From sequence record GQ495225.1: a stretch of 7,513 bases of DNA. The stretch is one strand, 5' to 3'. The position numbers and the translations under genes are program-made. Of this stretch, positions 60 through 7,433 are shown in pieces. The notes under the pieces were generated by a model, which did no database searches, was not told the origin of the DNA, and was given only the letters and a program-made list of their open reading frames with translations. How positions within the stretch are numbered: the first letter of the stretch is position 1; each line of letters opens with the position of its first letter. The DNA is from Escherichia phage RES-2009a.

Positions 60-1640
60 ATGAGTGACGTTTTAGCCTGGGAGGAACTATCCCAATCAGA
101 GAAGCAAGCCATCAAACTTCTGTCTACGCATAACTTCGAAACATTCCTGCGAGTGTGGTTCTCCATCACTCAGGGGCAAAAGTATGTGTTGAACTGGCAT
201 CATAGATACCTATGCAGGATTGTTGATGAGATTATTAGCGGAGAGCGAAAGGATACAATCATAAACGTATCACCTGGCGCCGGTAAAACCGAGATCACAT
301 CAATTCACTTTCCAGTCTATAGCTACCTAAAGCTACCAAGGGTTCGCAACCTTAGCCTTTCATTCTCTGATAGTCTGGTTAAGCGAAACTCAAAGCGAGT
401 GAGGGACCTTATTAAATCAATGGAATTCCAGGAGCTATTCCCAAGCAAGTTCGGGACGTGTAAAGATGACGAGATTCAGGTGCTTGATGAATCAGGTAAG
501 GTTAGATTTGAGTCAATATCAAAGGCCATTGGAGGGCAAATAACCGGATCAAGGGGTGGTTACATCACGGACACTTATAGCGGCTGCATCATGCTCGATG
601 ACGTTGATAAAGTTGATGATATGTTTAGTAAAGTTAGACGTGAAGCGGTGCACATGCTCCTGAAGAACACGATACGCTCTCGTCGCGCAAGTTCGGTAAA
701 GGGAAAGGCAACACCAATTATTTCCATACAGCAGCGATTGCATGTTAACGATAGCTCCTGGTTCATGTCTGAATCTGGGGGTATGGGTATAGATTTCGAT
801 GTTGTGAAGATTCCAGCGATAGTTACTGAGGATTACATCGACACGCTTCCTGACTGGTTAAAACCACACTTTGAGGCCGACGTACTATCAGCTGAGTACA
901 TTGAGCGAGATGGCGTTAAATACTACAGCTACTACCCGCAGAAGGAATCCATTCATGATTTAATGGCTATGCAAGACGCAGACCCATATACGTTCCTTAG
1001 TCAATATCAGCAGGAGCCAGTAGCACTAGGTGGCAACCTGATCAACGTAGATTGGTTCCAGCGAATCAGTGATACGTTCAGACCTCCAGCTAAATACGAT
1101 TATAGATTCATAACTTGCGATACTGCGATGACAACAAAGAGTTATAGTGACTTCTCTGTACTTCAGTTGTGGGGGTATAAGGATGCTAAGATTTACCTGA
1201 TAGACCAGCGCAGGGGTAAATGGGAGGCTCCAGAATTAGAGGCTGAATTACTTGACTTCGAGAAGAAATCAAGGGCAACCAGTCAGTCAGATGGCATCCT
1301 CCGAAAGATCATTATCGAGAAGAAAGCCTCTGGTATCGGCCTGATTCAATCGGCAGGCAGGGTAATGCGAACTCCGATAGAGCCATACGTTCCGGATAAC
1401 GACAAGCTGACTCGCGTAATGAGCGCATTGCCACAGATCAAGGCTGGTAACGTCGTCCTTCCAGAGTCAGGGCCGTGGCTAAGCGGATTGCTTACTGAGG
1501 TTGCAGCCTTTACGGCAGATGACTCGCATAAGCACGATGACCAAATTGACTGTCTAACAATGGCGGTAAACCTTGTTCTCAATATCGCAGATGACCCCAA
1601 AGCCCGACTAATGCGCATAGCGGGAATTAAACAGCCGTGA
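60..1640 (+). CDS. Terminase large subunit (ATPase plus nuclease)
   Basis: 526-aa ORF with ATG at 60 and SD-like AAGAGGG 7 nt upstream. Walker A-like VSPGAGKTE (nt ~274-291), Walker B-like CIMLDDVD, and C-terminal acidic motifs (FITCDTA, HDDQIDC) consistent with an RNase H-like terminase nuclease. Sits directly upstream of a portal-sized gene. Confidence 0.88.
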   Translation: MSDVLAWEELSQSEKQAIKLLSTHNFETFLRVWFSITQGQKYVLNWHHRYLCRIVDEIISGERKDTIINVSPGAGKTEITSIHFPVYSYLKLPRVRNLSLSFSDSLVKRNSKRVRDLIKSMEFQELFPSKFGTCKDDEIQVLDESGKVRFESISKAIGGQITGSRGGYITDTYSGCIMLDDVDKVDDMFSKVRREAVHMLLKNTIRSRRASSVKGKATPIISIQQRLHVNDSSWFMSESGGMGIDFDVVKIPAIVTEDYIDTLPDWLKPHFEADVLSAEYIERDGVKYYSYYPQKESIHDLMAMQDADPYTFLSQYQQEPVALGGNLINVDWFQRISDTFRPPAKYDYRFITCDTAMTTKSYSDFSVLQLWGYKDAKIYLIDQRRGKWEAPELEAELLDFEKKSRATSQSDGILRKIIIEKKASGIGLIQSAGRVMRTPIEPYVPDNDKLTRVMSALPQIKAGNVVLPESGPWLSGLLTEVAAFTADDSHKHDDQIDCLTMAVNLVLNIADDPKARLMRIAGIKQP

Positions 1641-1647
1641 TAAACTA

Positions 1648-1670
1648 AGCCCCTACATGGGGCTTTTTTA
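1648..1670 (+). terminator. Rho-independent terminator-like hairpin between terminase and portal genes
   Basis: AGCCCC (1648-1653), loop TACAT, GGGGCT (1659-1664): perfect 6-bp GC-rich stem followed by TTTTTTA. It overlaps the portal RBS region, so it may be leaky or act as an RNA-stability element. Confidence 0.5.
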
Positions 1671-1682
1671 TTGGAGAAAAAC

Positions 1683-2951
1683 ATGGTCAAGACAGACAGC
1701 TACGCCAATATATTCCTAGGCGGCAGTGATGGTAGTGAGATTTACGGGAGCTTGCAGAATCAGGCACCGACAATTCTGGCTTCGCTTTATGCGGATAATG
1801 CGCTGGTGCGTCGAATCGTTGACACAGTCCCGGAAACAGCACTAGCGGCAGGGTTCCACATTGATGGCATTGATGATGAACCTGCATTCTGGTCGCGTTG
1901 GGATGATTTGGAAATGACGAAGAATATTAACGACGCTTGGGCATGGGCGAGATTATTCGGTGGTTCAGCCATTGTTGCTATCGTTAAGGACAATAGAGCG
2001 CTAACAAGTCCGGTCAGAGAAGGTGCTGAGCTTGAAACGGTTCGCGTTTACGACCGTACACAAGTAGAAGTACAAACTCGCGAGGAGAATCCACGTAACG
2101 CACGTTTTGGTAAGCCGTTAACCTATCGCATCACCACTAACGAAAGCGATATGTTCTATGACGTGCACTACAGCAGAATTCATATCATCGATGGCGAGCG
2201 AATCCCTAACGTAATGCGTCAACAGAATGACGGATGGGGCCGCAGCGTTCTATCCAGTGACATTCTTGACTCAATCAAGGATTACACCAACTGCGAACGA
2301 CTTGCTACGCAGTTACTGAAGCGCAAGCAGCAGGCGGTGTGGAAAGTCAAAGATCTGGCTGAGTTGTGTGACGATAGTGAGGGATTTGGTGCCGCAAGGT
2401 TGCGCCTAGCACAGGTTGATAACAATAGTGGCGTTGGTCAGGCGATTGGTATTGACGCGGAGTCTGAAGAGTACAGCGTTCTAAACTCTGATATTGGTGG
2501 TATTGATGCGTTCCTGGATAAGAAGTTTGACAGAATCGTTGCTCTGAGCGGTATTCATGAAATCATCCTGAAGAACAAGAACGTTGGTGGCGTGTCATCA
2601 AGCCAGAATACGGCACTGGAGACATTCCATAAGCTAGTTGACCGCAAGCGTAACTCAGAACTGCTGCCTATTCTTGAGTTCTTAATCCAGTTCATAGTTA
2701 ACGTTGACGAATGGTCGGTTGAGTTTAATCCCTTAGCTCAGGAATCAAGCAAGGACAAAGCGGAGATTCTGGAGAAGAACGTAAGCAGCATCGCGACGCT
2801 AATTGCATCTGGCGCTATGGATATTGATGAGGCTAGAGATACATTGCGTACAATCGCTCCAGAGGTTAAGATTAGTGACGGTTCAGTAGAGACAGAGGTG
2901 ACAATTAGTGAAACCAGTAACGACCCGCTGGAAGTATCCGCAGACAATTGA
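1683..2951 (+). CDS. Portal protein (putative)
   Basis: About 422 aa, immediately after the terminase and before a Mu F-like gene, which is the canonical position. The ORF-track start at 1671 is TTG; ATG at 1683 with GGAG at 1673-1676 (6-nt spacer) is the better start. Stop TGA at 2949-2951. Confidence 0.72.
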   Translation: MVKTDSYANIFLGGSDGSEIYGSLQNQAPTILASLYADNALVRRIVDTVPETALAAGFHIDGIDDEPAFWSRWDDLEMTKNINDAWAWARLFGGSAIVAIVKDNRALTSPVREGAELETVRVYDRTQVEVQTREENPRNARFGKPLTYRITTNESDMFYDVHYSRIHIIDGERIPNVMRQQNDGWGRSVLSSDILDSIKDYTNCERLATQLLKRKQQAVWKVKDLAELCDDSEGFGAARLRLAQVDNNSGVGQAIGIDAESEEYSVLNSDIGGIDAFLDKKFDRIVALSGIHEIILKNKNVGGVSSSQNTALETFHKLVDRKRNSELLPILEFLIQFIVNVDEWSVEFNPLAQESSKDKAEILEKNVSSIATLIASGAMDIDEARDTLRTIAPEVKISDGSVETEVTISETSNDPLEVSADN

Positions 2952-3636
2952 GAGCCAAGTTAACCGCAATCTCAGTATTGCGGTAACTGAGTTAATTTCA
3001 GCAATGAAGGAGTCAGCAACAAGGCTTAAAATTGATACTGCAGAGGAGCTGGAGGAGGAGGATGGATACCTTGACGGGATAATTGCGGCGCTGGTGGCTT
3101 CGTTTATATCTACAATCCCAGCCATAGGTGCAGCGATATACAGATACAATAGCTCACAATTTCTTGTGATTGCAATCAAAACTGGCGGTAGGTCAAAACC
3201 TAGCGTTCTAGACCTTGAAGTTAATGGCATCAATGGCGATGAGCCGTGGTATAATGATGACATTAATCAGTGGGTTTACACCACAAGCAAGTCAGCTATT
3301 AAATTGCTGAATAACATTAAAGATGACTTTATTCAAACGGCATCAACAGCACAGAATGGTGACTACGTTAAGTTATCAGGTAGGTACAAAACATACAGGA
3401 AGCGAACGGCAAACATCGCATCTGGGATTGTGTCAAGCCTAAACTCTACACTTATGAGGCGTAGGCTAGAGGATGCTGGCGTTAGCCGTTACATCTGGCA
3501 TGGTATGCTAGACGAAAGGGAGCGGCAATCACACATAGTAAGAGAAGGGCTTAGCTTTAAACTTGGTGGTAACGATATATTTCCAGGTCAAGAATACGGT
3601 TGCCGTTGCTGGTCGGTTCCAGATTGGGAATCATAA
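2908..3636 (+). CDS. Minor head / head morphogenesis protein, phage Mu F-like (SPP1 gp7-like) family
   Basis: C-terminal region WHGMLDERERQSHIVREGL...PGQEYGCRCWSVPDW matches the conserved W..DER.R..H......CRC signature I recall for Mu F-like proteins. GTG start at 2908 has a good SD (AGAGGTG, 8-nt spacer) and overlaps the portal gene by 44 nt. The alternative in-frame ATG at 3004 lacks an SD. Confidence 0.78.
   Translation: MKPVTTRWKYPQTIESQVNRNLSIAVTELISAMKESATRLKIDTAEELEEEDGYLDGIIAALVASFISTIPAIGAAIYRYNSSQFLVIAIKTGGRSKPSVLDLEVNGINGDEPWYNDDINQWVYTTSKSAIKLLNNIKDDFIQTASTAQNGDYVKLSGRYKTYRKRTANIASGIVSSLNSTLMRRRLEDAGVSRYIWHGMLDERERQSHIVREGLSFKLGGNDIFPGQEYGCRCWSVPDWES
3090..3097 (+). other. Chi octamer GCTGGTGG (RecBCD recombination hotspot motif)
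   Basis: Exact 8-mer on the + strand, inside the Mu F-like gene; it is not aligned to codon position 1, unlike the other two copies. Confidence 0.6.
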
Positions 3637-3648
3637 CAGGAGAATTAA

Positions 3649-4740
3649 ATGAGCAAAATCCGCTATGACAGCGCAAAAGTAAAAGCACGATTCGATGAGA
3701 ACGGATTTCTCGTCGACACGCCAGTAGTTGCTCGCGTGGGTGTTCAGACTTACATCACACCAGACGGCAAGGAGCGCCGCGAGTTTCGCCCAGCAAGAGA
3801 GGTATTTAAGGCTGAATCACTCGCAAGCTATCAGGGTAAGCCGGTGACCTTCGGGCATGTCACTGTCAACTCGGATAACGCCAGGGGCGTTGTTGTTGGT
3901 GCGGTTTCCGGATCAGGTGAGCGCAGTGATGCGGCAGTTGTTGTTCCGCTAACCATTTATGACAAAGAGGCTATCGAAGCGGCTAAGGCAGGTCGCGCTG
4001 GTGAGTTGTCGGTTGGCTACACGACCGAGGATGTTAACATAGCAGGTTGGGGTAGCAATGAAACTGGTGAATATAAGCTCGATGGTGAATATGAATCGCA
4101 AGATGACATCCCACCTGAGTGGGTTCGCTTTGATGCGCTACAAACCAACATTGTAGTTAATCATGTTGCACTGGTATATAAAGGTCGCGCAGGGGTAGCA
4201 AAGTTAAATTTTGACGCTCAACAGGAAAACCCGTATACTACTGACGTTGATATCAATAAAGAGGATAAACAGGAAATGACAGTTAAAATTAAACTCGACA
4301 GCGCGCAGGAATTTGAAGTCGCACCGGAAATCGCTTCTCACATCGAAGCACTGAACGCAAAGGCTGACACCGCAATCGCAGAGCGTGATGCACTGAAAGC
4401 TAAAGTACATGCAATGCCTGCTGAAATCGAGGCCGCAGTTGCTAAAGCGAAAGCTGATGCTGATGCCCTAGCTGCCCTGGTTGCTGTTGCTGCTGAAGCT
4501 GGTGTAAAAGCTGATGGCCTGGATGCTAAAGGCATTAAAGTTGCCTACGTTAAAGAAATCTCCGGCCTTGATGTTTCAGAGAAATCCGACGCTTACATCG
4601 ACGCAGCCTTCGACATTGCCAAAGAATCTGATAAAATGGCTGAAGTACGAAAAGCGACTACCGCTTACGACAGATCTGACAGCGCCGATGAGCCTAAGAA
4701 ATTAGACCCTCGCGCTCGTTTAGCTAAAATTAAGAAATAA
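3649..4740 (+). CDS. Scaffolding-type protein: N-terminal globular domain plus C-terminal Ala/Lys/Asp/Glu-rich predicted helical region (possible protease-scaffold fusion)
   Basis: 363 aa, ATG 3649 with AGGAGA 5 nt upstream. Located between the minor head protein and the capsid gene. The C-terminal half (from about nt 4270) is low-complexity and charged, e.g. AEIEAAVAKAKADADALAALVAVAAEAG, which is typical of scaffold coiled-coils. The N-terminal roughly 190 aa looks globular and resembles, from memory, an uncharacterised domain family found at this position in siphovirus head modules. Confidence 0.6.
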   Translation: MSKIRYDSAKVKARFDENGFLVDTPVVARVGVQTYITPDGKERREFRPAREVFKAESLASYQGKPVTFGHVTVNSDNARGVVVGAVSGSGERSDAAVVVPLTIYDKEAIEAAKAGRAGELSVGYTTEDVNIAGWGSNETGEYKLDGEYESQDDIPPEWVRFDALQTNIVVNHVALVYKGRAGVAKLNFDAQQENPYTTDVDINKEDKQEMTVKIKLDSAQEFEVAPEIASHIEALNAKADTAIAERDALKAKVHAMPAEIEAAVAKAKADADALAALVAVAAEAGVKADGLDAKGIKVAYVKEISGLDVSEKSDAYIDAAFDIAKESDKMAEVRKATTAYDRSDSADEPKKLDPRARLAKIKK

Positions 4741-4752
4741 GGAGTTATAAAC

Positions 4753-5226
4753 ATGGCAATTCGTTCCGTAGCACTGGCTGGTATGATTTCTGATACTTCG
4801 CTCCATAACATCGACGGCGCATGTGTGGTTGGCGGCGCAACGGCAATCCCTGTCGGCACTGTTGTTAAGTTTTCAACCGCTCAGCCTGTAGATGGGAATA
4901 AGATTGTGGAAGCAACTGGCCTAGTTACCGGTAATGCTCTTGGTGTAGTTGTTCGATCTCACTACGAGACTGCGGATGGAACTGCTCGCGTAAATGAAGC
5001 GGTTAACGTAATGACTCACGGTCGAATCTGGGTTCGCTCAAGCCTTACTTCTGCACCAACGTTTGGCGCCCCAGTTCTGGTATCTGCCACTGGATTGGTT
5101 GAAGATTCGGGTGCGGTTGACACTGGATGGACTTTTGCGGGTGGTTACATCAAAAACACTGGCACAGACCCGCAAGACCTTAGCGTAGATGGCGCGCTGG
5201 TTGAGGTTCAGGTTAAGCAAAAGTAA
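4753..5226 (+). CDS. Small structural protein, Gly/Val/Ala/Thr-rich (candidate capsid decoration / cement protein)
   Basis: 157 aa, ATG 4753 with AAGGAG 8 nt upstream overlapping the previous stop. Composition suggests a beta-rich protein. It lies immediately upstream of the major capsid gene and is followed by a strong terminator. Function is inferred from position and composition only. Confidence 0.55.
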   Translation: MAIRSVALAGMISDTSLHNIDGACVVGGATAIPVGTVVKFSTAQPVDGNKIVEATGLVTGNALGVVVRSHYETADGTARVNEAVNVMTHGRIWVRSSLTSAPTFGAPVLVSATGLVEDSGAVDTGWTFAGGYIKNTGTDPQDLSVDGALVEVQVKQK

Positions 5227-5244: not shown

Positions 5245-5267
5245 AGCCTCCTTCGGGAGGTTTTTTT
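5245..5267 (+). terminator. Rho-independent terminator (UUCG tetraloop)
   Basis: CCTCC (5247-5251), loop TTCG (5252-5255), GGAGG (5256-5260), extendable by flanking A-T pairs, then T7 run 5261-5267. Starts 19 nt after the stop of the 157-aa gene. Confidence 0.75.
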
Positions 5268-5273
5268 ATACCA

Positions 5274-5301
5274 TTGCGTGGGCTAAAAACTCGTGTATAA
5301 T
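5274..5301 (+). promoter_or_regulatory. Sigma70-like promoter candidate upstream of the major capsid gene
   Basis: -35 TTGCGT (5274-5279), 16-bp spacer, consensus -10 TATAAT (5296-5301). Predicted start about 5308, giving a roughly 32-nt leader with AAGGA at 5325-5329 before ATG 5340. Confidence 0.5.
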
Positions 5302-5339: not shown

Positions 5340-6284
5340 ATGGCCATTAAATTTGATGCAGAACAAGCAAAAATCACTGCTCACCTAGAGCAAATGGGCG
5401 TAGATAAGGCTGATGCCGCTGGTATCTGGACCGTTAGCCAGCTTACCGCTTCTCTGAAGCGTGCTTACGAAAAAGAATATTCAGACAACTCCGTTGTTAA
5501 TATCTTCCCTGTAACCAATGAAATCCCTGGTCACGCGAAGTATTTCGAATACCCAGAGTTTGATGGTGTTGGAATTGCTCAGATTATCGCTGATTACTCT
5601 GACGACCTGCCGCTGGTTGATGCCTTCATGACTGAGAAGCAAGGTAAAGTGTTCCGTTTCGGTAACGCATTCCTGATCTCCACTGATGAAATTAAAGCAG
5701 GCGCAGCTACTGGTCAGTCACTGTCGACTCGCAAACAGGCCCTGGCTTTCGAAGCACACGACAACCTGCTGGATAAACTGGTTTGGTCCGGTTCCTCTCC
5801 GCACGGTATCGTAAGCGTATTCGATCAGCCGAACATCAACAACGTTGTTGCCACTCCAAACTGGAGCGTCCCGCAGAACGCGATTGATGACGTCACTGCG
5901 ATGATTGATGCGGTTGAGAGCTCAACTCAGGGCCTACATCATGTAACTGACATTCTGCTTCCGGCTTCCGCTCGTCGAGTAATGCAGGGACTGGTTCCGC
6001 AGACAAACCTGAGTTACGGCGAATTGTTCACTCGTAACAACCCGGGTCTGACTATTCGCTTTATGCAGATCCTGGATAACTACGATGGCGCTGGTGGTAA
6101 AGCCGCTCTGGCGTTTGAGAAGAGTCCACTCAATATGTCTATCGAGATTCCGGAAGCTACTAACGTTCTTCCGGCTCAACCTCGAGATCTGCATTTCCGC
6201 TACCCTGTAACATCAAAGGCTACGGGATTGATTGTATATCGCCCTCTTACGATGGCTGCAATCAAAGGCATCACCTTCGCGTGA
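5340..6284 (+). CDS. Major capsid protein (putative)
   Basis: 314 aa, size appropriate for a capsid protein, and follows the scaffold and small structural genes. It has its own promoter candidate and SD and is followed by a strong terminator, a layout consistent with a highly expressed structural gene. Sequence identity was not verified by search. Confidence 0.72.
   Translation: MAIKFDAEQAKITAHLEQMGVDKADAAGIWTVSQLTASLKRAYEKEYSDNSVVNIFPVTNEIPGHAKYFEYPEFDGVGIAQIIADYSDDLPLVDAFMTEKQGKVFRFGNAFLISTDEIKAGAATGQSLSTRKQALAFEAHDNLLDKLVWSGSSPHGIVSVFDQPNINNVVATPNWSVPQNAIDDVTAMIDAVESSTQGLHHVTDILLPASARRVMQGLVPQTNLSYGELFTRNNPGLTIRFMQILDNYDGAGGKAALAFEKSPLNMSIEIPEATNVLPAQPRDLHFRYPVTSKATGLIVYRPLTMAAIKGITFA
6090..6097 (+). 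other. Chi octamer GCTGGTGG
   Basis: Exact 8-mer on the + strand inside the capsid gene, encoding Ala-Gly-Gly in frame. Confidence 0.6.
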
Positions 6285-6290
6285 TAAATC

Positions 6291-6312
6291 GCCCTCTTCG
6301 GAGGGCTTTTTT
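6291..6312 (+). terminator. Rho-independent terminator (UUCG tetraloop)
   Basis: GCCCTC (6291-6296), loop TTCG (6297-6300), GAGGGC (6301-6306), then T6 run 6307-6312. Starts 7 nt after the capsid gene stop (TGA 6282-6284, followed by TAA). Confidence 0.8.
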
Positions 6313-6317
6313 ACGTC

Positions 6318-6346
6318 TGTACCAAATGGATTTGTTGGGTTATAAT
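6318..6346 (+). promoter_or_regulatory. Possible weak sigma70 promoter upstream of the 81-aa gene
   Basis: Consensus -10 TATAAT at 6341-6346, but only a poor -35 candidate (TGTACC at 6318-6323 with 17-bp spacer). No TG extended -10. Confidence 0.3.
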
Positions 6347-6376
6347 CACTCAATCAGATAAACAAAGGAGATAAAA

Positions 6377-6622
6377 ATGATTCGTTTAGAACACACTGGC
6401 GCTTGCCTTATCGTTTACAAAGGTGATAAATATTTGCCTGGTGACACTTTCGAGGTTGATGTAATTTGCGACGGGCTCAAGCGTTTAATCGCAGAGGGTA
6501 AACTCACGATTGAGGGTGACACCAAAGCAACCAAACAGATCGCGCAGGAAATTGTTAGCAAGAAAAAGCGCAAAGAACCGAAAACCATCTCCGAAGCTGA
6601 GATTGGCAACGAGTACAAATAA
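6377..6622 (+). CDS. Hypothetical small protein, 81 aa, Lys-rich C-terminus
   Basis: ATG 6377 with AAGGAG (6365-6370) and a 6-nt spacer. No recognisable motif. Bracketed by hairpin terminators on both sides with a TATAAT box upstream. Confidence 0.65.
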   Translation: MIRLEHTGACLIVYKGDKYLPGDTFEVDVICDGLKRLIAEGKLTIEGDTKATKQIAQEIVSKKKRKEPKTISEAEIGNEYK

Positions 6623-6628
6623 CAAACA

Positions 6629-6650
6629 GGGCGCTTCGGCGTCCTTTATT
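6629..6650 (+). terminator. Terminator-like hairpin (UUCG tetraloop, weak U-tract)
   Basis: GGGCGC (6629-6634), loop TTCG (6635-6638), GCGTCC (6639-6644): 6-bp stem with one G-U pair, followed by TTTATT. The weaker T-run suggests partial termination or an RNA-stabilising hairpin. Confidence 0.45.
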
Positions 6651-6663
6651 GTATGGAGCTAAT

Positions 6664-7065
6664 ATGAATGATGCAATTTTGGCGTTTATGCGCTCGCTTG
6701 TTCCGGCGCTCAAAGCGGTGGATGACGAATCAATTAATGTATGGATTGATTTGGCACGTCTATACGTATGCGAAAGCAAATTTGGTGCAGACAAAGACAA
6801 GGCTGTCGGGCTTTATGCGCTACACCTGATGCTTGCTGATGGCGCATTTAAGGGTGAGAATGAAGGCCTGGAAACATACAGCCGTAGAATGGCAAGTTAT
6901 GCACTGAGCGGTGAATTCTCTATAACCTATGATAACCAATCAGCAATCCAGGGTGATTTATCATCTTCCTCCTGGGGTCGCATGTACAAGGCGCTTCTCC
7001 GCAAGAAAGGTGGCGGCTTTGGATTGATTACTTCCGCTGGTGGCGGTGGGTGCGGTTGCCGATGA
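6664..7065 (+). CDS. Putative head-tail adaptor / head completion protein
   Basis: 133 aa. The ORF-track start at 6649 is TTG; ATG at 6664 with TGGAG (6654-6658) and a 5-nt spacer is preferred. Size and position (first neck-type gene after the capsid gene) fit a connector, but the sequence is not confidently recognised. Unusual Gly-rich C-terminus GGGFGLITSAGGGGCGCR. Confidence 0.5.
   Translation: MNDAILAFMRSLVPALKAVDDESINVWIDLARLYVCESKFGADKDKAVGLYALHLMLADGAFKGENEGLETYSRRMASYALSGEFSITYDNQSAIQGDLSSSSWGRMYKALLRKKGGGFGLITSAGGGGCGCR
7036..7043 (+). other. Chi octamer GCTGGTGG
   Basis: Exact 8-mer on the + strand near the 3' end of the 133-aa gene, encoding Ala-Gly-Gly in frame. Confidence 0.6.
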
Positions 7066-7433
7066 ACTACAACGAAATCGAATCAATTACTCGCGCTGGC
7101 ATTAACTTCTTTAGTGATGCCAATGGCGTTTACGAGATGAGCACTGGCGCTGGATATGTTGAAATCGTTAACGGCGTTGAAGTGGAAGTGCCAGCGCAAA
7201 CATTCCAGCTAAAAGGATTGGTGCGAGAAATCAAGACGCGCGATATCGATGGCGAGTTTATCCAGTTTGGCGATAAGCGCGGAATCTTCACGGCTCAGAT
7301 TGAAATCAGGCAGGGTTATCAGATTAAAGTCGATGGTGAGACTTTTGTTGTTATTGACCCGCGGCCCGTTAAACCAACCGGAACAGTTGTTGGGTATAGA
7401 CCGATTCTTCGTAGGGTGGCTACTTATGGCTAG
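7062..7433 (+). CDS. Putative head closure / neck protein
   Basis: About 123 aa from ATG 7062, which overlaps the upstream stop as ATGA (a translational-coupling arrangement). In-frame GTG 7050 and TTG 7056 are alternative starts. Composition suggests a beta-rich small protein; function is inferred from position after the adaptor-like gene. Confidence 0.5.
   Translation: MNYNEIESITRAGINFFSDANGVYEMSTGAGYVEIVNGVEVEVPAQTFQLKGLVREIKTRDIDGEFIQFGDKRGIFTAQIEIRQGYQIKVDGETFVVIDPRPVKPTGTVVGYRPILRRVATYG

Follow-up and report, generated by a model that had tools for sequence, protein, structure and literature searches.

The sequence analysed here, referred to as the window, is a 7,513-nucleotide stretch of the genome of Escherichia phage RES-2009a (GQ495225.1), and we examined a small gene within it that encodes a protein of 81 amino acids (aa) and is located between the gene for the major capsid protein (hereafter MCP) and those for the neck proteins. 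A preliminary description made from the letters alone had presented this gene as a self-contained unit with a terminator and a promoter of its own in front and a second hairpin behind, and had read this layout as that of a phage moron or an independently regulated accessory gene. The open reading frame (ORF), its Shine-Dalgarno sequence and its position between the capsid and neck genes were confirmed, and all elements lie within 1-2 nt of where they had been placed. The interpretation fared differently. From its family membership, conserved synteny, purifying selection and typical GC content it follows that the gene belongs to the core of the head-morphogenesis module of the Drexlerviridae and has been inherited vertically, and the signals that flank it are a family-wide punctuation of the late operon by terminators. 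The locus contains the following features.

6291-6312, plus strand: T_MCP, intrinsic terminator of the capsid gene (GCCCTC-UUCG-GAGGGC at 6291-6306, T6 at 6307-6312)
6318-6346, plus strand: putative sigma70-type promoter (-35-like TGTACC at 6318-6323, 17-nt spacer, TATAAT at 6341-6346)
6365-6370, plus strand: Shine-Dalgarno sequence AAGGAG, 6 nt 5' of the ATG, its GGAG core invariant in a 10-sequence alignment
6377-6622, plus strand: coding sequence of the 81-aa protein, ATG start (DUF7444 / PHROG 2716)
6377-6562, plus strand: codons 1-62, predicted compact beta/alpha domain (strands at residues 2-6, 12-14, 17-19, 24-27 and 43-45; helices at 32-39 and 49-62)
6557-6619, plus strand: codons 61-81, predicted disordered tail made up of a basic linker and a C-terminal peptide (predicted local distance difference test score, pLDDT, 44-64)
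6628-6653, plus strand: T2, a second intrinsic-terminator-like hairpin (AGGGCGC-UUCG-GCGUCCU at 6628-6645, then TTTATTGT)

The profile search that the preliminary description had proposed for this protein, in which it recognised no motif, places it in a known core family. It matches DUF7444 (PF24231) over its full length (residues 2-80), with a score of 67.9 bits against a gathering threshold of 27 (E = 7e-19), and phrog_2716 with an E-value of 8e-31. All 36 aligned relatives of the protein also hit PF24231, and 248 phage records matched at E <= 1e-3. The gene is the orthologue of T1 gp46 (ST46), Rtp28 and JK_24 of phage JK06, with which it shares the family hidden Markov model, the position between the capsid and DUF4054 genes and terminators on both sides; the record of phage Rtp itself notes the link to T1 gp46. 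Sequence identities range from 93-97% to the Braunvirinae members down to about 25% to T1 gp46, and an N-terminal extension, MAKEK, distinguishes the proteins of T1 and the Tempevirinae from the 81-aa protein.

The family is small: when 1.8 billion representative proteins were searched exhaustively with its profile, 53 members were recovered. All members are stand-alone proteins, mostly of 76-122 aa with one of 48 aa. An apparent fusion protein of 208 aa was set aside as an artefact in which a frameshift leads to read-through into DUF4054. Two database variants of the family (the metagenome proteins P0120 and P0082) are frameshift artefacts of this kind, translated through the terminator hairpin and in the case of P0120 also fused to DUF4054. 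Weak matches to DUF7210 were obtained for 7 of the 36 family members (best E = 0.008) and are not interpretable. A literature search returned no paper in which DUF7444 is mentioned.

The check for presence or absence in related phages, also proposed in the preliminary description, yielded a gene at the same locus in every genome: in 13 of 13 annotated genomes, which cover eight subfamilies or genera, the DUF7444 gene comes after the PF09950 capsid gene and before the DUF4054 gene. The genomes inspected included those of CEB_EC3a and Rtp from the Braunvirinae, T1 from the Tunavirinae, Rogue1, AHS24 and Phagiculus from the Rogunavirinae, IsaakIselin and Motto from the Tempevirinae, IMGroot (Webervirus), ESP2949-1 (Kyungwonvirus) and AAS23 (Sauletekiovirus), as well as Rao1, the record of which has no taxonomy line and which was grouped with the Braunvirinae by its protein identity of 83%. 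The position is thus kept in every Drexlerviridae lineage sampled although the identity of the protein drops to about 25% in T1, a universal rather than sporadic presence that argues against a moron, that is, an independently regulated host-interaction or fitness factor outside morphogenesis.

An argument in favour of such a factor is that the junction tolerates insertions, since a gene for an HNH homing endonuclease separates the capsid gene from the 81-aa gene in Rogue1, Rao1, phiEB49 and one contig from IMG/VR (locus L016). These HNH genes (L004 3487-3972; L006 1874-2470; L016 and L017, upstream of 3001) sit exactly between the capsid terminator and the TATAAT box, at a point equivalent to about 6313-6340 in the window. 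By arithmetic on the intergenic lengths, the TAA stop codon of the HNH gene appears to fall within the conserved TATAAT.

The composition of the 81-aa gene is ordinary, with a GC content of 0.439 (0.469 for the window) and a GC content at third codon positions (GC3) of 0.488, as compared to GC3 values of 0.41-0.49 for its neighbours. Ratios of nonsynonymous to synonymous substitutions (dN/dS), calculated by the Nei-Gojobori method against in-frame relatives, were 0.04-0.25, indicating purifying selection. Three minus-strand ORFs that overlap the gene (6415-6618, 6485-6625 and 6555-6800) were dismissed as unsupported; the substitution pattern fits the plus-strand frame. Both the absence of a compositional anomaly and the strong purifying selection speak against a moron, and these phages are virulent, so that the rationale of expression from a prophage does not apply.

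Scans against Pfam and PHROG showed that the window represents a complete siphovirus head module of nine plus-strand genes, of which the eight others are listed below.

60-1640, plus strand: large terminase (TerL)
1671-2951, plus strand: portal protein (PF06381)
2908-3636, plus strand: Mu-F-like protein
3649-4740, plus strand: DUF2213 protease/scaffold
4753-5226, plus strand: cement protein (PF22758)
5340-6284, plus strand: major capsid protein (PF09950)
6664-7065, plus strand: DUF4054 adaptor
7050-7433, plus strand: head-closure protein Hc1

In a megablast search the window was about 90-93% identical to Rtp-like coliphages, among them OzMSK/Msk, CEB_EC3a, ACG-M12 and Rtp, which belong to the subfamily Braunvirinae of the Drexlerviridae. 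Two further records, MG065688.1 ("Campylobacter phage A110b") and PP134917.1 ("Pseudomonas phage PsgS01F"), match this Rtp-like coliphage region at about 92% identity; their host labels look doubtful and the phages may perhaps be contaminants or carry-over. For the DUF4054 adaptor, the ORF as called mechanically (6649-7065) begins at a TTG at 6649 that falls within the tail of T2. The start is likely the ATG at 6664, which is preceded by GGAG at 6656-6659 and agrees with the annotation of the relatives.

The gene of the module that does vary is another one. The Mu-F-like minor head gene is present in Rtp, T1 and Webervirus and is missing from CEB_EC3a (L001 55-2392), where the portal gene runs straight into the protease gene and a tblastn search gave no match. 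Since CEB_EC3a lacks it, the variable gene of the head module is the Mu-F-like gene and not the 81-aa ORF, a further point against reading the latter as an accessory gene.

Rho-independent terminators, recognised by a GC-rich hairpin with a U-run and by structural conservation, are predicted at both 6291-6312 and 6628-6653. The T_MCP hairpin has a folding free energy (dG) of -12.2 kcal/mol with a z-score of -4.3, and none of 200 shuffled sequences folded equally well. A hairpin followed by a T-run is found at the same site in T1, Webervirus, Tempevirinae, Kyungwonvirus, Sauletekiovirus and Rogunavirinae, with stem sequences that are unrelated. The upstream hairpin of the preliminary description is real and conserved family-wide. 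So is the downstream hairpin, which had been placed at 6629-6650 and which we find at 6628-6645 plus a tail (dG -11.6 kcal/mol, z = -3.3; 1 of 200 shuffles was as good). T2 recurs in each of the diverse relatives compared (11 of 11), and compensatory changes were seen in 5 of 9 pairs. Its T-run is interrupted (TTTATTGT) and leads into the Shine-Dalgarno sequence of the DUF4054 gene, so that T2 is predicted to be the weaker of the two and termination ahead of the neck genes may be partial. Terminators on both sides of gp46 are annotated in the T1 record, and likewise in those of CEB_EC3a, AHS24 and Motto.

The stem of T2 (GGGCGC...GCGYCC) is kept in sequence across subfamilies with proteins that are only 25-35% identical, whereas the stem of T_MCP varies freely. 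Stems resembling that of T2 were seen at a few other sites, for example at 8927 in T1 and at 5067 in Motto.

Bracketing by hairpins is not special to the 81-aa gene, since equivalent structures were found by scanning and folding in every plus-strand gap of at least 30 nt in the window. All four gaps hold a tetraloop hairpin with a T-run of about -12 kcal/mol, at the following sites.

1647-1671, plus strand: after TerL
5247-5266, plus strand: after the cement protein gene
6291-6312, plus strand: after the MCP gene
6628-6653, plus strand: after the 81-aa ORF

The T1 record likewise annotates many terminators throughout the late region. A repeat of the layout was also seen outside the window, at L001 6624-6986 in CEB_EC3a (gp56), where the major tail gene is followed by a terminator, an 82-aa hypothetical ORF and an annotated promoter.

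The capsid gene itself has the same layout, in that a promoter (5274-5301, plus strand; TTGCGT at 5274-5279, a 16-nt spacer and TATAAT at 5296-5301) follows the cement terminator at 5247-5266. This promoter is conserved in every subfamily (the site in the window and its equivalents in loci L001-L011 and L023), and outside the Braunvirinae and Rogunavirinae it takes the form TTGACN-17-TGCTATNAT with an extended -10 (T1, Tempevirinae, Webervirus, AAS23 and ESP2949-1). A search against Rfam gave a single sub-threshold, terminator-like match to Phe_leader upstream of the capsid gene and nothing else. Because a terminator followed by a promoter also precedes a core gene such as that for the capsid, a self-contained unit is no mark of foreignness. 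The arrangement of terminator, possible promoter, gene and terminator, with a Shine-Dalgarno sequence of its own and in the form of a cassette between two morphogenesis genes, is what could speak for a moron; given that the same elements flank core genes, we consider a moron most improbable.

The promoter in front of the 81-aa gene is a more delicate matter. The candidate site has a perfect -10 (6/6), its best -35 is TGTACC (3/6) and it has no TGn, for which reasons it was not called at 6341-6346 when the window was scanned for two-hexamer consensus promoters. The window has 4 copies of the hexamer TATAAT where chance would give 4.1, and the significance of this particular box comes from comparative conservation only. 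It is found unchanged, at a distance of 33-36 nt from the ATG, in 17 of 17 loci from Braunvirinae and Rogunavirinae, including four in which an HNH gene takes the place of the spacer upstream. In an alignment of 10 sequences from these two groups, with a mean column identity of 68%, the only invariant blocks upstream of the gene were TATAAT, GGAG and ATG. The box is absent before the homologous gene in T1, Tempevirinae, Webervirus, Kyungwonvirus and Sauletekiovirus, and in T1, Tempevirinae and Kyungwonvirus hardly any sequence separates the terminator from the ribosome-binding site. No transcription-start data for Drexlerviridae were found in a literature search. Judging from the conservation pattern, the box is probably part of an internal restart promoter in the Braunvirinae and Rogunavirinae.

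Of the expression unit described initially, the translation signals, the two conserved terminators and a -10 box that is invariant within the clade have thus stood, while the hexamer occurs at chance level in the window, the -35 is poor, and the capsid gene has the same layout.

A structural model obtained with AlphaFold2 from the 36-sequence alignment had a pLDDT of 84 overall and of more than 90 for residues 1-60. It consists of the compact beta/alpha domain and the flexible tail listed above. The lysine-rich SKKKRKEPK, previously taken for the tail of the protein, is present but spans residues 61-69 and forms a basic linker within the protein, and the real C-terminus (TISEAEIGNEYK) is an acidic, conserved dodecapeptide. 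The sequence of this acidic-aromatic peptide is T-I-S-E-A-E-x-G-x-E-Y-K in the 81-aa protein; the version seen in T1, Tempevirinae and others is K-x-x-x-E-L-E-D-G-G-E-Y. Apart from Webervirus, every subfamily has kept the motif.

A Foldseek search of the model against the PDB gave no significant match to a solved structure, the hit of note being YqbF of the B. subtilis skin prophage (2HJQ) at E = 1.7. Both YqbF and the C-terminal domain of lambda gpFI (2LSM) were among the weak structural neighbours, along with the N-domain of ribosomal protein L9, L30 and the B-domain of GINS. A sequence search of the PDB with the family profile returned nothing relevant, and the matches in BFVD were to uncharacterised phage proteins only, the significant ones being family members.

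The association of L9, L30 and GINS with RNA or DNA, together with the basic linker, raises the question of whether the protein could be a small regulator that binds nucleic acids, for instance one that modulates read-through at the late terminators by binding RNA, with the T2 hairpin as a possible target. The many terminators of the operon, which need read-through, and the unusual conservation of the T2 stem in sequence as compared to T_MCP would fit such a role. Beyond the weak fold neighbours and the stem there is nothing that supports it, and we regard it as very unlikely.

Another alternative, and the one named in part by the preliminary description as an accessory structural protein, is that the protein is a low-copy component of the virion. 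It could serve in the minor capsid, at the portal vertex or in head completion, escape small-scale proteomics, and be added after the capsid protein and ahead of the neck proteins, in line with the gene order. The gene is located within the structural module, at the head-neck junction and in all relatives, and the conserved C-terminal docking peptide would suit a structural plug-in. Against this, the canonical neck set (DUF4054 adaptor, Hc1, Neck1 and tail terminator) is already complete without the 81-aa protein, and the GenBank notes for Rtp label T1 gp47-49 as abundant and capsid-related but do not so label gp46. The strong Shine-Dalgarno sequence, the -10 box and the downstream terminator also suggest a level of expression above that needed for 12 copies.

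Direct data on virion content come from a single phage, Pantoea phage AAS23, in which the homologue is ORF08 (Pfam E = 5e-24). It was not among the 17 virion proteins identified using liquid chromatography coupled to tandem mass spectrometry (PMC8004638, Table S4), although the list does include a protein of 8.8 kDa as well as the decoration protein ORF06 of the PF22758 type (PMC8004638). The same proteome missed the 12-copy adaptor and the head-closure proteins, which are true virion components (PMC8004638), and the absence of the homologue is therefore weak evidence. The idea of an accessory structural protein is thus weakened by this negative result from one phage, and we consider a low-copy virion component less likely than not, though a serious possibility. 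As for a role in capsid decoration, which would call for abundance in purified virions, the window already encodes a cement protein at 4753-5226. A published list for Sfin-1 was set aside as unreliable since it includes holin, lysin and replication enzymes among the virion proteins.

The reading that we favour is that the 81-aa protein acts as an accessory factor in assembly or DNA packaging and that mature particles contain little or none of it. This role is put forward by analogy and with low confidence, on the grounds of the gene position, the two-part architecture of the protein, its likely intermediate expression and its probable absence from the virion. Taken as a whole, the explanation of a DUF7444 core gene in a punctuated late operon that encodes a non-virion accessory protein for assembly or packaging has, in our estimation, about an even chance of being correct.

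Under this explanation, the capsid gene would give rise to an abundant short mRNA that extends from its own sigma70 promoter to the strong terminator. The downstream genes would be reached by read-through of the terminator and, in the Braunvirinae and Rogunavirinae, also by re-initiation at the TATAAT box, whereas in T1-type phages the homologue of the 81-aa gene and the neck genes would depend on read-through. The level of the 81-aa protein would accordingly lie between that of the capsid protein and those of the 12-copy neck proteins. The folded N-terminal domain of about 60 residues may bind the capsid shell, while the flexible basic linker and the acidic-aromatic C-terminal peptide may dock a second partner, for instance the terminase or the portal, in a bridging role such as lambda gpFI has from the equivalent gene position.

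In lambda, FI occupies the same slot, directly after the major capsid gene and between E and FII. According to a review (PMC13595911), gpFI, a packaging chaperone, bridges the capsid and the terminase-DNA complex and is not a part of the motor. FI-like proteins in this slot have also been proposed by others for TP901-1. The relation to gpFI is proposed here as an analogy and not as family membership. No hit to PF14000 was obtained even at E <= 10, and homology was looked for and not found, with hhalign probabilities of 0.7-1.4% over 13 columns (with the single sequence and a 22-sequence alignment) and a pairwise p of about 0.06. A large protein search with gpFI itself brought up only homologues of at least 86% identity, too similar for a deep profile. 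Lambda also differs in being a cos phage with a capsid protein of a different family and without the PF09950/DUF2213/DUF4054 module.

Pseudomonas phage E217 has the same type of head module, with a gene in the protease-scaffold position, a PF22758 cement protein, a capsid protein of the PF09950 type, one small gene and a DUF4054 adaptor. The paper on its whole-virion reconstruction at 3.1 Å does not list gp26, the product of the small gene, with the gene products that it describes, a point in favour of a non-virion role. It was examined as a distant homologue and rejected (145 aa, hhalign probability 0.1%, no Pfam family).

Several observations weigh against an off-virion accessory protein of this kind. 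The argument from relative abundance has been drawn from the DNA sequence and nothing else. The putative promoter has a poor -35, and T1, the Tempevirinae and other lineages have none at this spot. The AAS23 proteome covers one phage and overlooked known low-copy proteins, as noted above. Finally, the domain order is the reverse of that in gpFI, with the folded domain at the N-terminus in the 81-aa protein and at the C-terminus in gpFI.

A more specific form of the accessory-factor explanation would make DUF7444 the counterpart of gpFI in T1-like phages, which package by a pac/headful mechanism. The protein would then be a capsid-binding chaperone, the N-terminal domain of which is a very remote relative or convergent analogue of the gpFI/YqbF domain and the E-L-E-D-G-G-E-Y tail of which docks the terminase or portal. 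This is a speculative proposal to which we attach only a small probability. If it holds, a capsid lineage other than that of lambda, and with it a large family of virulent phages, would also have FI-like function.

Much of what is described here was already known, in that the family has been catalogued (DUF7444, PHROG 2716) and the terminators have been annotated in the records of T1 and other phages. The 81-aa gene is an ordinary conserved hypothetical gene and should not go forward as a candidate moron or host-interaction factor. At the level of the clade, the Braunvirinae and Rogunavirinae keep a -10 box just after the capsid terminator and T1 and others do not, a footprint that points to differences in re-initiation within the late operon.

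T1-like phages are widely used in work on defence systems, and binding of Avs7 to the capsid protein of T1 has been reported (bioRxiv 10.64898/2026.01.04.697583); it may be speculated further that a protein which binds unassembled capsid protein could alter its detection by host sensors of the Drexlerviridae capsid protein. A small protein that is universally conserved, probably not part of the virion and encoded in the slot of lambda gpFI would be a reasonable knockout target for studies of head assembly and packaging in T1-like phages.

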